NCBI GenBank assembly: GCA_026016245.1 | Contig: CP061211.1 | Span: forward strand, 90,001 to 122,000 | DNA from: Candidatus Pacearchaeota archaeon | Lineage (GTDB): Archaea; Nanobdellota; Nanobdellia; Pacearchaeales; UBA284 | DNA: 32,000 nucleotides | Direction: 5' to 3' | Part shown: positions 245 through 25,495 of the stretch, piece after piece | Layout: every line of letters begins with the position of its first letter | Numbering within the stretch: the first letter of the stretch is position 1 | Notes under the pieces: generated by a model | What the model was told of the DNA's origin: nothing | What the model saw: the letters and a program-made list of their open reading frames with translations, nothing else | Database searches by the model: none | Program-made: the position numbers and the translations under genes

Positions 245-823
245 TCACTCTTCCCATTGTCCTGATTCTTTTCTCCTACAATTTGCGCAAAGATATCTGT
301 TACCTATCTTATAAAGTAAATCAAAAACACCACATTCATGGCAAGGTCCCTCTCTCACCCAACGAAATTCATCCACTGCCCTGATACGCTTCCATTTCTC
401 TTCTTCCTCCGCAATCTTAACATTCTGGAAAGCAATATCAAAAAGATCTGGCTGTATTTTCAGAATGTCCTTCTCTGTAAGAAAGCCAATAACCTTATGA
501 TTAACAAGAACAGGAAGCCATCTTACTCTTTTCTTTTTCATAGTCACAAGAGCATCAAAAATGTCCTTCCCAGGCTTGATTCCATGAACTTTCTTTGTCA
601 TTATCTTATTTACCTTGGTCTTTTTTTTATTGAGACTTTTGGCCATGGCCCTTACTAAATCACCTTCTGTAACTATTCCTTTCAACATTTGATCAGATCT
701 GACAATAACAGAACCAACTCCCTTTTTAACCATAATTTTAGCACATTCAACCATAGTTATATCTGGCTTTATTGACACAAATTTCCTGGTCATGACATCA
801 CCTACTTTAATCCCGACTTTCAT
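245..823 (-). CDS. CBS-pair domain protein with C-terminal zinc ribbon
   Basis: 192 aa. Two CBS-like units (VGDVMTRKFVSIKPD…GIVTEGDLVRA; IMTKKVHGIKPG…GFLTEKDILK) followed by CHEC…x14…CANC, a 4-Cys ribbon. Confidence 0.8.
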   Translation of the reverse strand: MKVGIKVGDVMTRKFVSIKPDITMVECAKIMVKKGVGSVIVRSDQMLKGIVTEGDLVRAMAKSLNKKKTKVNKIMTKKVHGIKPGKDIFDALVTMKKKRVRWLPVLVNHKVIGFLTEKDILKIQPDLFDIAFQNVKIAEEEEKWKRIRAVDEFRWVREGPCHECGVFDLLYKIGNRYLCANCRRKESGQWEE

Positions 824-845: not shown

Positions 846-2651
846 TTAAATAGTTTTTGTTAAGAAATCTTTTATTTCTGGAAGATGGGGAATTAGTATT
901 TTACTCCAAGTTTCATAATTATATTCATAAGATATTTCTTTAAGTATATCTATGGGGATAAAATCACTTTTTACAATAGAAGATTCTTTTGGTCTTACAT
1001 TTCCATCTGTTTGGATAGCATAAATAAATCCAAAATGAACTCTATCTACTGGTTTTTCACTTGCCATTAATGTTCCAACAAGAACTGGTTCTGATGATTG
1101 TTTTTCAAATTTTACTTCTTCTTCATGAACTTCACGTTTTACACAATTTAACAAATAGTCTGGCCTGTCAGATTCATTTATGTGACCTCCAACACCAATA
1201 GAATACTTACCAAAAAGTCTAGAATCTCCATATGCTTTTATATCCTTTGTTCTAACATAATAAAAAACTTCATCTTTATTATTATCTTTTCTAAAAATTA
1301 AAACATAAGGCACTATTTGTAATATCTCTTGATCTTCCTCACAATCATATCTTAATGAAAACATAGGAGCCGCTTGTACGAGTTTTTCCAAATTCTTTGC
1401 TTTGGTTGGAGTTATAATTTCAAAACCTTCTTTAGAGTCACGAAATTCAAGCAGTTCTCTTTTTGGTAAAGCTAATACTTTTCTGTTTAATTTTTTGTAG
1501 TCTTTCCCAAGTTTCGGGAAATCTACTTTTTTAAAATTATTTGATAGCCTAGGTCCTATTTGTCCATTATAACTAGAACCTTTGTCTTTTCCATAACATT
1601 TTTTTGGAGTTAAACCACGGAAAATCTGTAGTTCGCTTATAGCCATTCCATCTCTCAAAATCATTGGAGAAATTTCTTCAGATCTAACCTCAAAAACAGC
1701 ACATCCATTAAAACCATTATCAAAAAAACCTGCAAAATGTAACGGCCCATGTATGCCAACATGTGAATGGTCTTTTAATTCAGCGCTTAGGTTTGATGGA
1801 ATTTTAATATATTCTTTTGAAGATAATAAATAACACTTTCCTGGTTTGATTTCTACTGTGTTATTTTTCATGATTATAGGCTCAAAATATTCTTCAACAT
1901 TATATCCCTCTTTTTCCTTAATATCTATGGGAATAGGGTTATTCCTTGCTTTAAATCCAACTATCCCAGAAGTTTGTTTTCCTGAAATATCTAAAGTTAA
2001 TCTTAATCCATCATGAATTTGTGGATTTTTTATCTCTTTTAAAGAATCTTCCTCTATAGAGTAAAGTATAGGCTCTTTTTGATATTCTTTTTCTAGTTCT
2101 TTATCTGTTAATTTATTTTCATTTCCTATGAGAAATCTTAGTTGATTAAAAGTCATTCCTGGCTGTATTATTAAATTAAAAGCAAGAGGTTGTAAGAGCA
2201 GCCAGAGTTCTAATTTTTTATTGCTAACTGTAACTTCATCAAAACAATCATGATAATCTGTGAGTAGCCTGTTTAAAATAAAAACTCTCCCTCTACTGCT
2301 TTTTGGAGAAGATTTGACTCTAAAATTCCCAGGTAGCATAAGTTTTTCTTCCAGAGGCAAGAGATAGCTATACCCTTTTTTTATTTCAAATTCTTTATCT
2401 ATAGTATGTTTTTGACGTCTTTTGTTAGGAAGTTGTAATAAACTTCTATAAACAGGCTCATAATTGCTTGGCCTAAAAAGACCACCACTTTCTGTATCAA
2501 TAACATAAACTTCATCTCCTATCCTTGGTTCAAAAGAAGATGGTTGAATTCTATTTTCTAAATCTTCATTTGAAGTAGAAATAATTTCTTCTTCCACAGC
2601 TTGTTTAATTTCAAAATCCACTAAACATCTAGAAGTTGATTTGTCTAACAT
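846..2651 (-). CDS. Fusion protein: N-terminal dCTP deaminase-like (DCD / dUTPase-superfamily) domain plus C-terminal Nudix-like (MutT-type phosphoesterase) domain
   Basis: 601 aa. The N-terminal ~370 aa carry IQPSSFEPRIGDEVYV, SSPKSSRGRVFILNRLLTD…FDEV, LRF and HFAGFFDNGFNGCAVFEVRS, the pattern of the long 2'-deoxycytidine 5'-triphosphate deaminase family. The C-terminal ~160 aa carry GVGGHINESDRPDYLLNCVKREVHEEEV, a degenerate Nudix box with core REVHEEE. Confidence 0.7.
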   Translation of the reverse strand: MLDKSTSRCLVDFEIKQAVEEEIISTSNEDLENRIQPSSFEPRIGDEVYVIDTESGGLFRPSNYEPVYRSLLQLPNKRRQKHTIDKEFEIKKGYSYLLPLEEKLMLPGNFRVKSSPKSSRGRVFILNRLLTDYHDCFDEVTVSNKKLELWLLLQPLAFNLIIQPGMTFNQLRFLIGNENKLTDKELEKEYQKEPILYSIEEDSLKEIKNPQIHDGLRLTLDISGKQTSGIVGFKARNNPIPIDIKEKEGYNVEEYFEPIIMKNNTVEIKPGKCYLLSSKEYIKIPSNLSAELKDHSHVGIHGPLHFAGFFDNGFNGCAVFEVRSEEISPMILRDGMAISELQIFRGLTPKKCYGKDKGSSYNGQIGPRLSNNFKKVDFPKLGKDYKKLNRKVLALPKRELLEFRDSKEGFEIITPTKAKNLEKLVQAAPMFSLRYDCEEDQEILQIVPYVLIFRKDNNKDEVFYYVRTKDIKAYGDSRLFGKYSIGVGGHINESDRPDYLLNCVKREVHEEEVKFEKQSSEPVLVGTLMASEKPVDRVHFGFIYAIQTDGNVRPKESSIVKSDFIPIDILKEISYEYNYETWSKILIPHLPEIKDFLTKTI

Positions 2652-5333: not shown

Positions 5334-6485
5334 ATGGAACGAGAAAATAATGAGATTAAAAATTTAGAAAATGAAGAAGAATTTAATAAAGAAAAAGAAA
5401 TATTAATTATTGATCTTGATAAAAATAAAAAAGATCTTTTTGAATTAGAAAAAAGAGAAGATTATTTGATAAAAAAGAAGGAACAAATAATTAATTCTGA
5501 GAAATATATATTCTCAAATAATTTGGATATCAAGCAAAAAGAAATAACTATAGATCTCAGTAAAATGAAAGAAAAAATAGTTTCTGATTTTTCAAAACTA
5601 AAAAAATCACTTAAAAAGTATCAAAGACTAGATATGACTTCTGAATTTGAAAAAAAACTTATTGATAATTATATTGCAAATGAATTAGAAGCCTTACTTA
5701 TTGATTCTAATCTTAAGATAATTGATATTCTAAATAATTTATCAAGAGCAATATCTGAAGAAAAGATAAGCGTAAAGGATAAAATAATTAATAGAATAAA
5801 AGAACAGATAAAAAAAATGAATTATGAATATTTAACAGATTTTATTAAAAAATACAATCTAATTATAGAAAATAAAAAGAAGCTTGAAAGTGAAATGCAG
5901 AAAAATGATGTAAAGAAAGATCTAGATAAGATAGAGAAAGAAATACATGAAATTAAAAATTTACAAAGTTCAATAAAATTAGAAAATGATTTAATGAAAC
6001 AGAAGTTAGTATCAAAAGAAAAATGGAAAAAATGTCCAAGATGTGGGAAAGAAATTCCTAATAATTGGAAACATCATCTAAAATGTGGATGGAAGGAAAA
6101 TGAAGAAGAGAGTAGAGAACAAGAATCTGATTCTAAAAAATCCAAAATAATGGTTTTCACATCTCCTACTTGCCCTCATTGTCTTCCTGCATTAAATTTA
6201 GCTAAACAGATTAAAAAAGAGAGAAATGTAAAAGTTATTGAAGTGAATACGGCAACCCCTCATGGACAGAAAAAAGCTAAGCAAATGGGAATAATGGCTG
6301 TTCCAACAATTTTTGTGAAGGGTCCTGCTTATCCACAAGTTATAGGTCTTAAAGGCTTACCATCAAAAAAAGGATTATTAAAAATCGTTGATATAAGTTT
6401 AGGTATTGAAGAATGGGAGAAATCAAAAGGATTTTTTAAAAATTTATTTAGTAAAATTAAAAAAAAATCAAATAAATCAGATTAG
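5334..6485 (+). CDS. Coiled-coil / zinc-ribbon / thioredoxin-fold (Mj0307-type glutaredoxin-like) fusion protein
   Basis: 383 aa. About 230 aa are K/E/N/I-rich heptad-like sequence. This is followed by CPRCGKEIPNNWKHHLKCG and then a C-terminal VFTSPTCPHC…GIMAVPTIFV thioredoxin-like domain with a CPHC redox motif. Confidence 0.75.
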   Translation: MERENNEIKNLENEEEFNKEKEILIIDLDKNKKDLFELEKREDYLIKKKEQIINSEKYIFSNNLDIKQKEITIDLSKMKEKIVSDFSKLKKSLKKYQRLDMTSEFEKKLIDNYIANELEALLIDSNLKIIDILNNLSRAISEEKISVKDKIINRIKEQIKKMNYEYLTDFIKKYNLIIENKKKLESEMQKNDVKKDLDKIEKEIHEIKNLQSSIKLENDLMKQKLVSKEKWKKCPRCGKEIPNNWKHHLKCGWKENEEESREQESDSKKSKIMVFTSPTCPHCLPALNLAKQIKKERNVKVIEVNTATPHGQKKAKQMGIMAVPTIFVKGPAYPQVIGLKGLPSKKGLLKIVDISLGIEEWEKSKGFFKNLFSKIKKKSNKSD

Positions 6486-13437: not shown

Positions 13438-14103
13438 TTACTTTTTTCCTAATTCTTTTTTTACATTCTCAGCAACTTTTCTAGCCAATACAATAGGTTC
13501 TGGCATTTTGTGTGGTTCTTTAATACATCTTTTTGTTACTTCTATAGCTGTCTTTAGAGAGATCATATGGCCTGGAGAGATGTAGACTGGATTAGCTCCT
13601 TGTTTTGTTACTATTGCTTTAGCAACAATCTTCTTATTTAAAATTATCTCACCATTTTTTTCCTCTCCTATTAGGACTTTTTTAGCCACTCCAATAGTTG
13701 GTTTATTTATACTGACTCCAAAATGGCTTGTTAATCCTAAACCTCTAGGATGGGCAATTCCATGAGCTTCGATAAATATAACATCTGGTTGTTCTTCTAG
13801 CTTGCTGTAAACAATTGACATTGGAATGAGTTCTCTATAAGCTCTATAGCCAGGAATATAGGGAAATTTTATTGGTTTTATAATATATTTTTCTTCTATA
13901 AGTTCTAAATTCTCATCACATACAGCAGCACAAGCCATTATTTCTTTTGTTTTCTGTAAAATTTCTGTATGAATTGCTCCGAATCTTGTTGCATTTTCAA
14001 AATTAAATACATCTTTCGTTGAGATGTTCTTGGCTAGCTTTGTTTGTTCTGTCTTAAGAGCTTCAATATCTATACCTTTCTCAATTGCCTCTTTTTCTTT
14101 CAT
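13438..14103 (-). CDS. nfi: Endonuclease V
   Basis: 221 aa. Contains the FIEAHGIAHPRGLGLTSHFGV…PTIGVAKK and PVYISPGH motifs characteristic of Endonuclease V. Confidence 0.9.
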   Translation of the reverse strand: MKEKEAIEKGIDIEALKTEQTKLAKNISTKDVFNFENATRFGAIHTEILQKTKEIMACAAVCDENLELIEEKYIIKPIKFPYIPGYRAYRELIPMSIVYSKLEEQPDVIFIEAHGIAHPRGLGLTSHFGVSINKPTIGVAKKVLIGEEKNGEIILNKKIVAKAIVTKQGANPVYISPGHMISLKTAIEVTKRCIKEPHKMPEPIVLARKVAENVKKELGKK

Positions 14104-14185: not shown

Positions 14186-14545
14186 ATGGTAAGAAAGAAT
14201 AGGAAAATAGATAAAAAATTAAAGAAATTGAAGAAGCTAGGTAGAGAGTACGGGGGACATTTACGAGCTAACGGCAGTCTAAAGTTTGCTCTTGAGGTAT
14301 CAAAAGGTAAGGGAAAATATCGCCAATTGGCATATTTATGGAGGGCTATAATTGTAGATCATCCTTTTACAGATGCTAACAAGAGGACGGCGATGAGAGA
14401 AACCTTAAGATTTATGAAAGAACATAAAATCGAAATAACTCAGAAAAAAATAGAAAGAATAACCAAAGCTATTATCAAAGTAGCAAAACAAAATCTTACA
14501 AATTTAAATCTGCTTGAGAGGAGGATTAGAAATGCAATCAAATAA
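14186..14545 (+). CDS. doc: Doc (death-on-curing) / Fic-family toxin
   Basis: 119 aa with VDHPFTDANKRTA, which matches the Doc-type Fic motif HxFx(D/N)(A/G)NKR. Confidence 0.85.
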   Translation: MVRKNRKIDKKLKKLKKLGREYGGHLRANGSLKFALEVSKGKGKYRQLAYLWRAIIVDHPFTDANKRTAMRETLRFMKEHKIEITQKKIERITKAIIKVAKQNLTNLNLLERRIRNAIK

Positions 14546-21100: not shown

Positions 21101-22144
21101 TTATTTTTTAATTAACTCAAATAATTTATCTCTAAATTTCGGCAGATCCTCCACACTAAGAGAGGCTCCTGAAGCTTTTTCATGTCCTCCACTTGTACTT
21201 TCTATTCCTTCTAAGGCCTTGGCAATTAAATCCCTGACATTTATATTCCCTCTGATAGAAATATTAGCTTTTGTTCCTTTAATATATGCCACAACAACAA
21301 TTCTGTCTGGGTAAAAATAAGAAAGTTCATTAGAAAGTTCACTGCTTAGACTTAACTCGCCGCCATACTGAAAGAAAAGAAGCTTTTTGCTTGTTCTTGC
21401 TATATCTCTTGCCCTGCTTAATATCTTCTCATACTTTTTATTAATCTGCTTGTATCTTCTATGTATTGATGATGTTTTTATTGTAATGTCAAGAATTTCA
21501 CGAGGATTTTTTAAAGTCAGAAGGTTTTTAAGCATCTTCACAACAATACTTGTCCTGTCTTTAAGAGCAAAACTTAGCATTTTCACAATGCGGCCAATTT
21601 CAGTCTCATATAATGCTTTTGCAGGATCTTTTGTTAGGATAAAAAGATCAGGATATTCTTTAGAAAATGATTCATCAAATTCTGGAATATACCAGTCAGC
21701 TAAACAGCCTATCATTGATATCCATTCATCCTCTTTTCTTTTTGTGATTTTGTAAGCCCAGTAAGAAGTTGGCTCATTACTTGGTTTATTTTGCAAAGGA
21801 TTAAAATAAAAAATTCCTTCTTCATTAGTATAATCTGGAGCAGGATGATGATCAAGCCATATAATAGGCACTCCAAATTCCCTGGCAGAATCTCTAAAAC
21901 CTTTCTCTATCAGCGGCTTATCAAGGACAAAAACATAATCTGGTTTAAATTCATACAATCGCCTAGCATGAGAAACACTTAGATCAGGAAAACTTTTTAT
22001 TGCAACACCTTTACCTTTTCCACAAAATCTCGCCAAAAGTAAAAAAGAAGCTAGGCCATCAACATCATTATCAAAAAGAAATAAAGGATTTTGGGCTTTC
22101 TCTAAAAAATCTCTGAATTTTTCTATTTGTTTTGGAGTCAGCAT
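21101..22144 (-). CDS. DHH/DHHA1-family phosphoesterase (stand-alone NrnA/DhhP-like; candidate c-di-AMP / nanoRNA phosphodiesterase)
   Basis: 347 aa. Motifs FDNDVDGLAS (DxD), IIWLDHHP (DHH) and SGGHEKASGA (the DHHA1 GGH motif). The start is 3 bp after the disA stop. Confidence 0.85.
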   Translation of the reverse strand: MLTPKQIEKFRDFLEKAQNPLFLFDNDVDGLASFLLLARFCGKGKGVAIKSFPDLSVSHARRLYEFKPDYVFVLDKPLIEKGFRDSAREFGVPIIWLDHHPAPDYTNEEGIFYFNPLQNKPSNEPTSYWAYKITKRKEDEWISMIGCLADWYIPEFDESFSKEYPDLFILTKDPAKALYETEIGRIVKMLSFALKDRTSIVVKMLKNLLTLKNPREILDITIKTSSIHRRYKQINKKYEKILSRARDIARTSKKLLFFQYGGELSLSSELSNELSYFYPDRIVVVAYIKGTKANISIRGNINVRDLIAKALEGIESTSGGHEKASGASLSVEDLPKFRDKLFELIKK

Positions 22145-22147
22145 TTT

Positions 22148-23254
22148 TTAAATTCTCTTTCCAACTAGAACTTGCTCTTTTAATTTTTTTAACTCTTTAA
22201 TCAATTTGTTTGCATCTTTTTCTCCTATAACTCTTGTGATTTTATCTGGTTCTGTTTCTATTGTGTTAAGTATTGATGGGAAATTTTTGAAATATCCTAT
22301 CAGAGTATCTTTTGATTCCTGGCTTACAGAGACTTTTGATAAAAGTCTATAGCCTATAGGCATTACAGGATCTGAAGGACTTGAATAAAGTAATACTCTT
22401 ATAATATTTTCTGATTCAAGAACCTCGTTGAAATTTAAAGTAGCCAGGGCTGTCTTTGTAAATTCCCAGTTTCTACTGTAATCCATAAGCAAGAGATTTT
22501 TTTCTTTATCAACTCCTTTAATAACTTCTTTAAGCAAAATTTCCACAAGATTTCCTTCATTTCCAAGTTCAATCAAATATTTTTTTATTGTTTCTGCAAT
22601 TCTAGAAATAATTTCCATCTTTTGAATACAGGAAATAATGTCTCTAAGACTTTCAAAATTAGCAAATTCAAGCACATTCAAATTTACAAGCAATTCATTA
22701 AGTATTTCTCTATGCTTCTCTAACATTCTCAAAGTCTCAACAGTCTTGCTAAGAACTCTTTCAGTATTCCTTAAGGCATATTTGGTATTTTTATAATACA
22801 GATTTATTGTTTTTCTTCTTTCAGAGACTGCTATAACTGGCCTGGAAGTCTGTTTTGCTGTTCTTTCAGCAGCCTTGTGTCTTGTACCTGTTTCATGAGT
22901 TTCAATATTATGATCTGGAACAAGTAAGGTATTACAATAAACAATCTTTTTTAAGTCATCTGATAAAATAATGGCTCCATCCATCTTACTAAGCTCAACA
23001 AGTTTCTGTGGTGTAAATTTACAATCAATCTTAAAACCACCATTTGTAGTTTTAAGTACTTCTTGACTGTCACCAACGACAATCAAAGAACCCATGCTGG
23101 CTTTGACCATATCATCAATAGCTGTTCTTAATTTTGTGCCTGGTCTTACTAGTTTAACTATCTCAAAAAGTTCATCGAGATCTCGTTCACGTCTTTCACG
23201 CTCAGCCTCCCTTTCAGCTTCTTTTTTTATTTCTTCTTTTTCTTGGGTATTCAT
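22148..23254 (-). CDS. disA: DisA-type diadenylate cyclase (DNA integrity scanning protein)
   Basis: 368 aa. DAC domain motifs GSLIVVGDS, DGAIILSDD and HETGTRHKAAERTAKQT, with SRPVIAVSERR. This is followed by a helical linker and a C-terminal HhH-like region (LLSKV…GYFKNF…I). There is an extra highly charged ~35-aa N-terminal extension. Confidence 0.9.
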   Translation of the reverse strand: MNTQEKEEIKKEAEREAERERRERDLDELFEIVKLVRPGTKLRTAIDDMVKASMGSLIVVGDSQEVLKTTNGGFKIDCKFTPQKLVELSKMDGAIILSDDLKKIVYCNTLLVPDHNIETHETGTRHKAAERTAKQTSRPVIAVSERRKTINLYYKNTKYALRNTERVLSKTVETLRMLEKHREILNELLVNLNVLEFANFESLRDIISCIQKMEIISRIAETIKKYLIELGNEGNLVEILLKEVIKGVDKEKNLLLMDYSRNWEFTKTALATLNFNEVLESENIIRVLLYSSPSDPVMPIGYRLLSKVSVSQESKDTLIGYFKNFPSILNTIETEPDKITRVIGEKDANKLIKELKKLKEQVLVGKRI

Positions 23255-24246
23255 CTTAATTTTAATAATTTCAAGGCTTCTTTAAATATAGCTTCTTCTT
23301 CATTAGCTTTAATTACAAATACTTTGAATTTTGGTAAAAATTTTAGATAACTTAGCACTTTTTGTCTGACTGGCTTGGAAGCTTCTCCAATGCCGCCAGA
23401 GAATGCCAAAACATCTATCCCATTAAGAGCAGCAGTATAAGAAGCTATGTACTTAGCAATATTATAACAAAAAAATTCAAAAGCAAGCTTATATTTTTTG
23501 CTTCTCCTTCTTGCCACTATTTTTTCGACATCTGTTATTCCACTTAAGGCAAAAAGACCAGATTTCTTATTAAGCATCTTTTCTACATTCCTGAAACTAA
23601 ATTTTTCTATAAGAAATAATATAATCCCAGGATCAATACTGCCACTTCTCGTAACCATGCAAGGACCTTCTAAAGGAGTTAAACCCATGCTAGTATCTAC
23701 AGCCTTGCCATTCAAAACAGCACTAATACTGCAACCTGCACCAAGATGGCATGTTACAATCCTTAAATTTTTCTTTCTCATTTGCTTTAAAATTTGTTCA
23801 CTTACATACTGATGATTTATTCCATGAAAACCATAACGCCTTATTTTATATTTTTTTAATATCTTAGAAGGCAAGGCATAAGTCTTAGTTTTTTCAGGAA
23901 GCTCAGAAAAGAAAGCAGTATCAAAAACTCCTATTTGTTTTATTCCAAACTTTCTACAGATTTCAATAGTCCTAATTTCGTGAGGATTATGTAATGGAGC
24001 AAATCTCGAGTATTTTTTTATTTTTTTCAGAATAGAAGGAGTAATAAAACAAGGTTTACTTATTGGGCCTCCATGAACAATCCTATGGACTATGATATCT
24101 GGATTAAACTTCCCAACAATTTTTTCTATAATTTTTCTGTTTACTCTAGTGTAGATTATTTTCTTTTCTCTAACCTTATTATTTTCATAAAAAGCATACT
24201 TTATTGTTTTTGAGCCTATATTAAAGATTAAAATTTTTCTTTTCAT
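23251..24246 (-). CDS. ackA: Acetate (propionate) kinase, shortened form
   Basis: 331 aa. Motifs ILIFNIGSKTIKY, VHRIVHGG, FAPLHNP, FDTAFF, RRYGFHGINHQYV, VTCHLGAGCSISAV…VDTSMGLTPLEG, TRSGSIDPG, NKKSGL, FSGGIGE and ANEEEAI. The TGA overlaps the disA ATG (ATGA). Confidence 0.82.
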   Translation of the reverse strand: MKRKILIFNIGSKTIKYAFYENNKVREKKIIYTRVNRKIIEKIVGKFNPDIIVHRIVHGGPISKPCFITPSILKKIKKYSRFAPLHNPHEIRTIEICRKFGIKQIGVFDTAFFSELPEKTKTYALPSKILKKYKIRRYGFHGINHQYVSEQILKQMRKKNLRIVTCHLGAGCSISAVLNGKAVDTSMGLTPLEGPCMVTRSGSIDPGIILFLIEKFSFRNVEKMLNKKSGLFALSGITDVEKIVARRRSKKYKLAFEFFCYNIAKYIASYTAALNGIDVLAFSGGIGEASKPVRQKVLSYLKFLPKFKVFVIKANEEEAIFKEALKLLKLR

Positions 24247-24643: not shown

Positions 24644-25495
24644 TTACCTCCTTTCAATTTTTTTATTTTTCCTCTGCTCATTAACCTGCAAAACAGTTAT
24701 TGCAGCAAGTGCAACAATATCCTCAACTTTACATCCTCTGGATAAGTCATTAACTTGCTTGCTTAGGCCTTGTAATACTGGACCAATAGCTTGCCATCCC
24801 CCAAGCTGCTCCACAAGTTTATATCCAATGTTAGCTGCATCAAGATTTGGAAAAATTAAGACATTTGCATTAATAGACTTTATTCCTTTTCTTTTGGCAA
24901 TCACTGCATTCAAGGCAGCATCAGCCTGAATTTCTCCTTTCATGATTAACTTAGGATATTTTTTCTTTAAAATTCTCAATGCTTTTGAAACTTTTTGAAG
25001 ACTTTTGCCTTTGCCAGAACCATGAGTTGAGTATGACAATAAAGCTATTCGTGGTTTTTTTATTGTTATCAGTTCAAAAGTTTCTGCACTTAGTAAGGCA
25101 ATTTCAGCTAATTGTCTTGGACTAGGATCTGGTTGAGCAGCGCAGTCAGCAAAAAGCAGCACTTTTTTCTTATCAGGAGAGATCATTAAAAAAGAACCAC
25201 TAACATGATTGATATTTTTTCTCATAAAATCAAATGAAAGTAAAATAGCTAAGATACTTGAATGGCTTGCTCCTGAAATAACAGCATCAACTTTATCTTG
25301 TTTTAACATCAATCTAGCTAAGTTTATTTTTTTCTCTATATTTACTTTTTCATTGAGAAATAAAGGCTTAGCAATTTTTTGTCTTTTGATGATTCTCGCA
25401 GCTCTTTTCACACGATTATCTTCATCTAGAAAAAGAATCTTTACAGGATTTCTTTTATTAATTTTGCACGCTCTTTTTTTTATTTTAAGAATCAT
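24644..25495 (-). CDS. pta: Phosphate acetyl/butyryl-transferase (PTA_PTB family), shortened form
   Basis: 283 aa. Motifs DAVISGASHSS, FADCAAQPDPSPRQLAEIA, LLSYSTHGSGKG, GEIQADAAL, ANVLIFPNLDAANIGYKL and GPVLQGLSKQVNDLSRGC. Confidence 0.82.
   Translation of the reverse strand: MILKIKKRACKINKRNPVKILFLDEDNRVKRAARIIKRQKIAKPLFLNEKVNIEKKINLARLMLKQDKVDAVISGASHSSILAILLSFDFMRKNINHVSGSFLMISPDKKKVLLFADCAAQPDPSPRQLAEIALLSAETFELITIKKPRIALLSYSTHGSGKGKSLQKVSKALRILKKKYPKLIMKGEIQADAALNAVIAKRKGIKSINANVLIFPNLDAANIGYKLVEQLGGWQAIGPVLQGLSKQVNDLSRGCKVEDIVALAAITVLQVNEQRKNKKIERR

Follow-up and report, generated by a model that had tools for sequence, protein, structure and literature searches.

Introduction

Cells require deoxyuridine monophosphate (dUMP) for thymidylate synthesis while keeping deoxyuridine triphosphate (dUTP) out of DNA, and dUMP is known to arise through a deoxycytidine triphosphate (dCTP) deaminase (DCD) acting with a separate dUTPase, through single-site DCD-DUT enzymes, or through deoxycytidine monophosphate (dCMP) deaminase. 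The DCD-DUT enzymes of Methanocaldococcus jannaschii and Mycobacterium tuberculosis (1ogh, 2qxx) convert dCTP into dUMP, NH3 and pyrophosphate (PPi) without free dUTP, and are homotrimers or hexamers of ~190-200-residue subunits in which one site performs both steps. Here we describe a gene, found in a 32,000-nucleotide stretch of DNA from a Candidatus Pacearchaeota archaeon (contig CP061211.1, positions 90,001 to 122,000; the whole of this stretch is called the window below), that encodes a long-form DCD fused to a Nudix-type hydrolase module. We consider it probable that the product is a housekeeping enzyme of deoxypyrimidine metabolism in DPANN archaea, with two active sites that would take dCTP to dUTP and then to dUMP; its place in deoxynucleotide and thymidylate metabolism as such is well supported. 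The proposed net reaction and purpose are those of the DCD-DUT enzymes, to which the deaminase lobes are homologous (2qxx, E 1e-9, TM score ~0.75). In contrast to these enzymes, however, the protein combines a two-lobe chain with an unrelated Nudix domain. The fusion may work like a DCD-DUT enzyme, but it is no member of that group by architecture.

Other described proteins resemble parts of the fusion. The long-form DCD of Agrobacterium tumefaciens (2r9q), for which we know of no published biochemistry, likewise has two tandem dUTPase-fold lobes, colinear with residues 9-375 of the fusion, with K-S-S-x-G-R in the N lobe and AGF-D...E together with a lid in the C lobe. Identity between the two is only ~25%, however, and the fusion has an extra C-terminal extension of 225 residues. 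This extension is a whole-chain, colinear match to TM1382 and has the invariant residues of the YmaB/TM1382 family as well as an association with ribonucleotide reductase (RNR) genes, although the family consists of free proteins of ~200 residues whereas the module forms the C-terminal domain of the fusion. The antiviral dCTP deaminases (the PADLOC dCTPase and AvcD-like proteins comprising a kinase and a zinc deaminase) have the same presumed substrate and are encoded beside the fusion at two loci, but they possess the zinc cytidine deaminase (CDA) fold (PF00383). The deaminase of the fusion, in contrast, is a dUTPase-like barrel with neither PF00383 nor an AAA_18/P-loop kinase domain, and its context is one of housekeeping genes.

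Architecture of the fusion protein

The open reading frame (ORF) at 846..2651 (-), which has an ATG start and its stop codon at 846-848, encodes a complete DCD-Nudix fusion of 601 residues, identical to database protein P0001, which is encoded on a 710,724-bp contig. AlphaFold2 models the full-length chain with a predicted local distance difference test score (pLDDT) of 94.1 and a predicted template modelling score (pTM) of 0.85, the latter value suggesting that the domains of the model are held in a fixed arrangement across the whole chain. An earlier note on this DNA, made from the sequence alone, had called a dCTP deaminase and a Nudix domain in this product, and both calls are borne out by matches to Pfam DCD_N and DCD_C and by sequence and structure matches in the PDB. 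The motifs quoted there were all located, with QPSSFEPRIG at residues 36-45, SPKSSRGRVF at 115-124, FDEV at 137-140, AGFFDNGFNGCAVFEV at 307-322 and VKREVHEEEV at 504-513. Relatives of P0001 carry the names Woesearchaeota, Pacearchaeota and Nanoarchaeota, which places its source among the DPANN archaea, and the genes around the fusion, which include those for the thermosome, ribosomal proteins L10e and L15e, deoxyhypusine synthase and Nre, are archaeal (G+C ~31%).

The assignment of the N-terminal part to the long DCD family stands. Pfam DCD_N matches residues 11-176 (E 4e-23; 82.6 bits against a gathering cut-off of 21.4) and DCD_C matches residues 203-373 (E 1e-31; 109.9 bits against a cut-off of 22), the latter segment also exceeding the gathering score of Pfam DCD. 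The best solved relative in a sequence search is 2r9q (E 3e-35 over residues 25-374), and Foldseek places the AlphaFold2 model on this structure with a TM score of 0.92 and a root-mean-square deviation of 2.0 Å, followed by short Dcd and DCD-DUT enzymes. The score against the NCBIfam equivalog PRK07559 is 188.7 bits, below the cut-off of 283. Because of this score, and because a more orthodox long DCD is encoded beside the fusion at two loci from other genomes (L125 and L111), the fused DCD is a divergent paralogue of the PRK07559 family.

The boundaries of the N-terminal lobe (residues 1-190; 2082..2651, -) follow from the DCD_N match and from alignment to 2r9q and the M. jannaschii DCD-DUT. 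Those of the C-terminal lobe (residues 191-375; 1527..2081, -), which carries the nucleoside-binding Asp, the catalytic Glu and a C-terminal lid, follow from DCD_C and from alignment to the Dcd enzymes of M. tuberculosis, Escherichia coli and M. jannaschii. Conservation was assessed in an alignment of 109 full-length orthologues, 40-67% identical to the query, to which all orthologue counts given here refer. Within the N lobe, K117, S118, G121 and R122 of the K117-S118-S119-x-G121-R122 motif (KSSRGR, residues 117-122; 2286..2303, -), the equivalent of the Dcd K-S-S-x-G-R motif with its catalytic Ser and Arg, are invariant (109/109), and HMMER aligns S118 and R122 with S118 and R122 of the M. 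jannaschii DCD-DUT. This lobe has no conserved catalytic Glu, position 148 in the Glu-equivalent region being variable. The C lobe retains the A307-G308-F-x-D311 motif and the catalytic Glu (A307 in 108 orthologues, G308 and D311 in 107 each, E321 in 108), all within AGFFDNGFNGCAVFEV (residues 307-322; 1686..1733, -), which HMMER aligns with 'AGFIDPGFSGHITLEL' of M. tuberculosis Dcd such that D311 and E321 fall on the ...IDPGF.G...LE motif of that enzyme. The lid motif YGKDKGSSYNGQIGPRLS (residues 353-370; 1542..1595, -) has invariant Y353, Y361 and Q364, with G366 present in 107/109 sequences, and its Y353...Y361-x-x-Q364-x-G366 pattern corresponds in the alignment to Y..KYQGQRGP, the tail of the short Dcd enzymes. 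Finally, the position of the Arg in the C lobe is occupied by I300, and none of the 109 orthologues has Arg there.

The catalytic set of E. coli Dcd comprises S111, R115, D128 and E138, and the active site of the homotrimer is assembled from two neighbouring subunits, as reported by Johansson et al. (2005). In the fusion this set is split in complementary halves, the N lobe keeping the Ser and Arg and the C lobe the Asp, Glu and lid. Given the two-subunit site of Dcd, this suggests that the lobes form a single composite site in each chain, where they meet. The full set would exist only if both lobes jointly build one site.

A linker of ~15 residues (376-390; 1482..1526, -) lies between the end of the 2r9q match at residue 374 and the start of the TM1382 match at profile position 388, and is helical in the AlphaFold2 model (helix at residues 378-388). 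Beyond it, the Nudix identity proposed in the earlier note holds, although the size given there (~160 residues) does not: the module spans ~211 residues (391-601; 849..1481, -) and corresponds to the whole TM1382 chain and to complete stand-alone homologues of ~200 residues. Residues 391-601 match TM1382 (3e57, 'putative Nudix hydrolase') with E 6e-10 as a single sequence and with E 8e-40 as a family profile, the latter match covering chain residues 11-206 of 211 and thus including the N-terminal extension that precedes the Nudix core. The AlphaFold2 model of residues 386-601 has a pLDDT of 96.4, and Foldseek ranks 3e57 at the top of its PDB matches (E 4e-14, TM score 0.85; 129 matches at E <= 1e-3), those listed after it being nearly all Nudix hydrolases, including NUDT7, RppH, NudI, MutT2 and MTH1. 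In contrast, Pfam NUDIX (PF00293) does not match the C-terminal module even at E 10, no family in Pfam or NCBIfam matches the C-terminal 215-221 residues at that same limit, and the few stand-alone relatives that match PF00293 do so weakly. The domain searches suggested earlier (Pfam/CDD) have hence confirmed the deaminase through Pfam but not the Nudix domain, whose identity was settled by sequence and structure comparison with solved structures.

The Pfam model misses the module because its Nudix box is non-canonical. The box GVGGHINESDRPDYLLNCVKREVHEEEV (residues 486-513; 1113..1196, -) has the form G489-x5-D495-x10-R506-E507-V-H-E-E-E-V-K and departs from the 23-residue canonical GX5EX7REUXEEXGU in three respects: Asp stands in place of the first Glu, the spacer is longer (10 residues against 7) and the terminal Gly is missing. 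When aligned with 29 stand-alone relatives, the spacer between the Asp and the Arg-Glu pair is seen to reach up to ~25 residues elsewhere in the family. Conservation among the orthologues is nevertheless high for the helix (R506 109, E507 105, E511 99, E512 106) and for the preceding segment (G486, G488, G489 and H490 107 each, D495 106), and across 30 members of the family, stand-alone proteins included, the metal-binding glutamates of the REUxEE helix do not vary. The fusion module and the stand-alone proteins have 21 invariant columns in common, among them Q445, Y449, S484, G486, G488, H490, R506, E507, E511, E512, H539, G541, E580 and W582. Catalytic Glu residues, the absence of which the earlier note had named as grounds for doubting an active enzyme, are thus present on alignment in both domains (E321 in 108/109; E507, E511 and E512 in 99-106/109).

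The YmaB/TM1382 family

The family to which the Nudix module belongs is large, with 7,703 representatives at 50% identity, of which the 150 that match best are, with few exceptions, stand-alone and ~200 residues long. Relatives of the module occur in 448 species-level genomes, spread over numerous phyla of Bacteria and Archaea, and 68 phage records contain them as well. That the family includes Bacillus subtilis YmaB is supported only indirectly. The homologue SP15_092 of phage SP-15 (E 3e-12) is annotated as 'similar to BSU17400', the locus tag of ymaB. On a Bacillus halotolerans plasmid, nrdE and nrdF are followed after 14 bp by a homologue of the module (E 4e-15), and a gene for dCMP deaminase is found nearby. 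BSU17400 has been listed as a putative Nudix hydrolase gene together with nrdI, nrdE and nrdF (BSU17370-17390) (PMC11904672). Preliminary deoxynucleoside triphosphate (dNTP) pyrophosphohydrolase activity has been reported for recombinant YmaB, and in the same paper dAMP was considered as arising through this protein (PMC5960316).

The closest stand-alone relative, P0122, is encoded 3 bp downstream of thyA and adjoins genes for thioredoxin, RNR and NrdR. Linkage of the stand-alone form to thyA or nrd genes is, however, lineage-specific (archaeal loci L010 and L011; Bacillus) rather than general. The thyA gene beside a stand-alone Nudix gene at L010 (L010:5015-5998, +; homologues P0151-P0270) belongs to a PF00303 subgroup of proteins of ~325 residues, mostly labelled 'hypothetical protein', that is common to Nanoarchaeota, Hydrogenedentes, Planctomycetota and others and that comprises putative thymidylate synthases or related pyrimidine methylases or hydroxymethylases. 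The same locus encodes a 601-residue thioredoxin with an intein-splicing domain (L010:6641-8446, -).

Distribution and gene context of the fusion

Proteins of the same architecture and of ~600 residues form more than 110 clusters at 90% identity, and a metagenome scan yielded 164 confirmed relatives of the fusion, which is widespread in Woese-, Pace- and Nanoarchaeota. The statement that no characterised protein has this architecture is consistent with our literature searches (TM1382, COG4112, dCTP deaminase-Nudix fusion, Woesearchaeota dCTP deaminase), in which neither a characterised protein nor a paper on the DCD-Nudix architecture was found; the architecture itself, on the other hand, is not rare in DPANN archaea, and some copies bear the JGI label 'predicted NUDIX family phosphoesterase/deoxycytidine triphosphate deaminase'. 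Both domain superfamilies and the predicted net chemistry are already known. P0025 and P0034 (765 residues) are triple fusions of DCD, YmaB-like Nudix and a C-terminal nucleoside-diphosphate kinase (NDK; PF00334). There are also a few DCD-only relatives of ~380-400 residues, one of them verified as a complete gene amid housekeeping genes; for the DCD-only relative P0118 no adjacent Nudix gene was found, so that there is no split form at that locus. A scan of IMG/VR viral contigs did not find the fusion.

We surveyed 84 loci with the fusion, for which the flanking sequence averages ~8 kb per locus. NrdR is encoded within ~7 kb at 11/84 loci, compared with an expectation of ~1 locus for any given single-copy gene by a rough estimate that assumes a genome of ~800 genes. 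RNR is encoded nearby at 13/84 loci (class II at 10, some with inteins, and class III NrdD at 3), and an NrdG-type activase at 4/84. Fusion proteins from the 14/84 loci with NrdR and/or RNR are only 39-64% identical to one another, implying that the linkage is old or has been repeatedly re-created. Canonical Dut is present at three loci (L142, L111, L125), 35-2100 bp upstream of the fusion on the same strand, and ThyX, detected by means of Pfam, at another three (L101, L148, L168). In addition, thioredoxin occurs at four loci and AAA_18 nucleotide-kinase proteins at six, some of the latter fused to zinc dCMP deaminase and one to a second long DCD, while serine hydroxymethyltransferase (SHMT), a FolC-like ligase, flavin mononucleotide (FMN) reductase, a MazG-type pyrophosphohydrolase and corrinoid adenosyltransferase are also encoded near the fusion.

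Several of these genes stand together. At L142, genes for NrdR, NrdD, NrdG, Dut, the fusion and a kinase-dCMP deaminase form a same-strand run, and at L157 such a run consists of NrdR, class II RNR, the fusion, a 120-residue ORF and thioredoxin. The fusion at L101 lies beside three AAA_18 kinases (one fused to dCMP deaminase), SHMT, FMN reductase, FolC-like ligase and ThyX; L137 has the end of an RNR gene, corrinoid adenosyltransferase, the fusion and thioredoxin; and L006 has NrdR, RNR, thioredoxin and orotidine monophosphate decarboxylase near the fusion. Across loci the neighbours also include housekeeping genes such as those for thermosome, DNA ligase, RNA polymerase and ribosomal proteins.

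In the window, the neighbours of the fusion are a CBS/zinc-ribbon gene (245..823, -), a 95-residue ORF and the thermosome gene, and no dut, thyA or thyX was found in the window and its extension. The distance of 22 bp reported previously between the fusion and the CBS/zinc-ribbon gene is correct. This gene was considered as a functional partner of the fusion and rejected, being conserved in 0/83 related loci from other genomes.

The surveyed loci also hold unusual proteins. The second, more orthodox long DCD is encoded ~170-330 bp upstream of the fusion (L111:4998-6644, +; L125:5694-6794, +) and is ~30% identical to the fused copy. At L111 this second DCD (548 residues) has an N-terminal AAA_18 P-loop kinase domain that matches the PADLOC dCTPase model with E 4e-17, which means that the kinase-plus-deaminase architecture exists with two unrelated deaminase folds. 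Proteins combining an AAA_18 kinase with a zinc dCMP/cytidine deaminase (L101:9995-11095, -; L142:8716-9759, +) are encoded inside the DPANN RNR/Dut/ThyX clusters, and may be either relatives of the defence enzyme with a housekeeping role or products of defence genes that sit within a cluster for nucleotide metabolism. The NrdR-NrdD-NrdG-Dut-DCD cluster of L111 includes a 215-residue canonical dUTPase with an N-terminal DUF1653 domain (L111:4233-4880, +). L133 encodes a 1,659-residue, intein-containing class II ribonucleotide reductase (L133:1159-6138, -), the sequence of which suggests large insertions.

Proposed function

In the reaction sequence that we favour, dCTP supplied by ribonucleotide reductase or by kinases would be deaminated to dUTP by the long-form DCD module, as its homology and conserved residues lead us to expect. 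The YmaB/TM1382-type Nudix module would then hydrolyse dUTP to dUMP and PPi, a step suggested by its family membership, its conserved REUxEE helix and the gene context, and it may hydrolyse dNTPs more broadly. Free dUTP would thereby be kept low and dUMP would pass to thymidylate synthase (ThyX or ThyA), so that the net reaction would be that of the single-site DCD-DUT enzymes, reached by the fusion of two unrelated catalytic domains. A one-polypeptide route from dCTP to dUMP had been put forward in the earlier note, and at the level of the pathway it is supported by the conserved catalytic residues, by the NrdR, RNR, Dut, ThyX, SHMT, thioredoxin and kinase neighbours, by the NDK fusions and by relatives linked to nrdEF and thyA. 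The part of that proposal in which the Nudix module supplies the dUTPase step is weakened by the canonical dut genes 35-2100 bp upstream in three relatives.

We also entertain a more far-reaching interpretation, to which we give only modest credence, in which the fusion acts as a 'Rosetta stone' for the Nudix family. The task of YmaB and TM1382 proteins would then be to hydrolyse dUTP or deoxypyrimidine triphosphates directly after ribonucleotide reduction, making them a third, non-homologous class of dUTP-removing enzymes besides the trimeric and the dimeric/MazG-like dUTPases. The product of the composite DCD site might in that case be channelled to the Nudix domain, dUTP never entering the pool.

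If the conversion of dCTP to dUMP by the fusion is correct, the covalent pairing of deaminase and Nudix would be a further, independently evolved route to dUMP, apparently common in a radiation of archaea with small genomes. It would also offer a testable function for the long-form DCD family, for TM1382 and for YmaB, whose gene is the fourth, and as yet unexplained, one in the RNR operon of B. subtilis. On the practical side, nucleotide metabolism could be better annotated in the genomes of DPANN archaea, which are often said to be without nucleotide pathways.

Alternative explanations

Several observations weigh against the two-step enzyme that we propose. The genomes of L142, L111 and L125 have a canonical trimeric dut alongside an intact Nudix box, and the Nudix module is not needed as the sole dUTPase there. 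No gene of nucleotide metabolism adjoins the fusion in the window, and the fused DCD, as a divergent paralogue, might use another substrate. To our knowledge, there is no biochemistry for any long-form DCD, TM1382 or DCD-Nudix fusion, and the activity of YmaB has been the subject of a preliminary report only. Moreover, at 80 GTDB loci of stand-alone relatives, mostly bacterial, clustering of the neighbours gave heterogeneous results and revealed no ThyA, ThyX, RNR, NrdR, DCD or Dut within 6 kb; the Dut probe recovered Pfam-confirmed dUTPases elsewhere, whereas the ThyX probe found nothing. Likewise, no link to nucleotide metabolism was seen in the stand-alone contexts of P0139, P0124 and P0141. 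At eight of the stand-alone loci L013-L091 the next gene on the same strand encodes, as judged by eye, an apparent HhH-GPD/Ogg-type DNA glycosylase of ~300 residues, and at six an apparent hypoxanthine phosphoribosyltransferase (HPRT), again judged by eye, is found nearby; such neighbours would fit a general pool-sanitising role. Taken with the adjacent dut genes, these glycosylase and HPRT neighbours imply that the Nudix module may have a broader or different dNTP specificity. In the strongest alternative, accordingly, the protein belongs to the pathway proposed above without its Nudix module being a dUTPase. That module would instead be a general or differently specific YmaB-type dNTP pyrophosphohydrolase, and the fusion would couple pool balancing to deamination: the Nudix module might trim the dCTP, dTTP and dATP pools or remove damaged dNTPs, while the DCD module would feed a separate Dut or would itself be a DCD-DUT. 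This is consistent with the report of YmaB as a general dNTP pyrophosphohydrolase only, discussed in connection with dAMP (PMC5960316). It is also consistent with the intact Nudix box where dut lies beside the fusion in three lineages, with the bacterial stand-alone relatives lying near glycosylase or HPRT genes and not thy or dcd, and with the MazG-type pyrophosphohydrolase in the L125 and L111 clusters, where several NTP pyrophosphatases thus coexist. On the other hand, dut is nearby at only 3/84 fusion loci, redundant dUTPases are common in microbes, and the fusion to a dUTP-producing enzyme, together with the thyA adjacency of P0122, is most simply explained by dUTP as the substrate. We therefore regard this alternative as a genuine but minority possibility, perhaps one chance in a few.

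Much less probable is a loss of catalysis in one of the modules, which would then be a nucleotide-binding regulator, either a pseudo-Nudix dNTP sensor that gates the deaminase or a pseudo-deaminase that senses dCTP or dTTP and gates the Nudix domain. The three departures of the Nudix box from the canonical form described above, the missing Pfam NUDIX match, the sub-threshold NCBIfam score of the divergent DCD and the absence of the Ser-Arg motif Arg from the C lobe (I300) might all be read in this way. The R-E-x-x-E-E glutamates are, however, kept in the fusions and in the stand-alone family, whose member YmaB is reported to be active, and 107-109 of the 109 orthologues retain the Glu, Asp, Ser-Arg and lid residues of the deaminase, with the N lobe supplying the Arg that the C lobe lacks. 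The earlier note had further raised the prospect of a nucleotide-depleting antiviral effector, in which dCTP would be destroyed on infection and the Nudix domain would make its loss irreversible. dCTP-depleting deaminases are indeed known in defence, as the PADLOC dCTPase model attests, relatives of the Nudix module occur in phage records (68), and the fusions at L101 and L142 adjoin kinase and zinc-deaminase proteins, that of L101 matching PADLOC dCTPase with E 2e-34 and that of L142 having the same Pfam architecture. Yet PADLOC gives no relevant match for the fusion, its CBS neighbour, an NDK-carrying relative or a DCD-only relative, and what its dCTPase model recognises are proteins with a P-loop kinase domain, which may stand by itself or be joined to a zinc CDA-fold deaminase or a long DCD; the dUTPase-fold deaminase of the fusion is not matched. 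Furthermore, conservation of the fusion within a single archaeal radiation is broad and deep, with more than 110 clusters and 40-67% identity, its neighbours are housekeeping, RNR, NrdR and ThyX genes rather than defence islands, and it was not found in the IMG/VR scan. The antiviral role is accordingly not supported, and we consider it very improbable.

Other genes in the window

An endonuclease V gene (13438..14103, -), whose product acts in deaminated-base repair, lies ~11 kb from the deaminase gene; no linkage of the two was seen in other loci. The 383-residue protein encoded at 5334..6485 (+) begins with a long stretch rich in Lys and Glu that is probably coiled-coil, contains a motif with Cys residues (CPRCGKEIP...HHLKCG) and ends in a weakly glutaredoxin/thioredoxin-like C-terminus; no clear family was found for it. 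A 119-residue ORF at 14186..14545 (+) falls just short of the Fic/DOC threshold (23.9 bits, cut-off 24), with a match over profile positions 57-86 only, and may be a Fic-domain remnant. Genes for acetate kinase (23251..24246, -) and phosphotransacetylase (24644..25495, -), between which lies a 127-residue ORF without a family match, match only the C-terminal parts of their Pfam families (84-350 of 392 and 101-319 of 319), and so encode either shortened enzymes or proteins with miscalled starts. Finally, a DisA-type diadenylate cyclase gene with DAC and DisA-linker domains (22148..23254, -) is located directly upstream of a DHH/DHHA1 phosphoesterase gene (21101..22144, -), a pair that looks like the bacterial DisA-type pair for synthesis and degradation of cyclic di-AMP in a DPANN archaeon.

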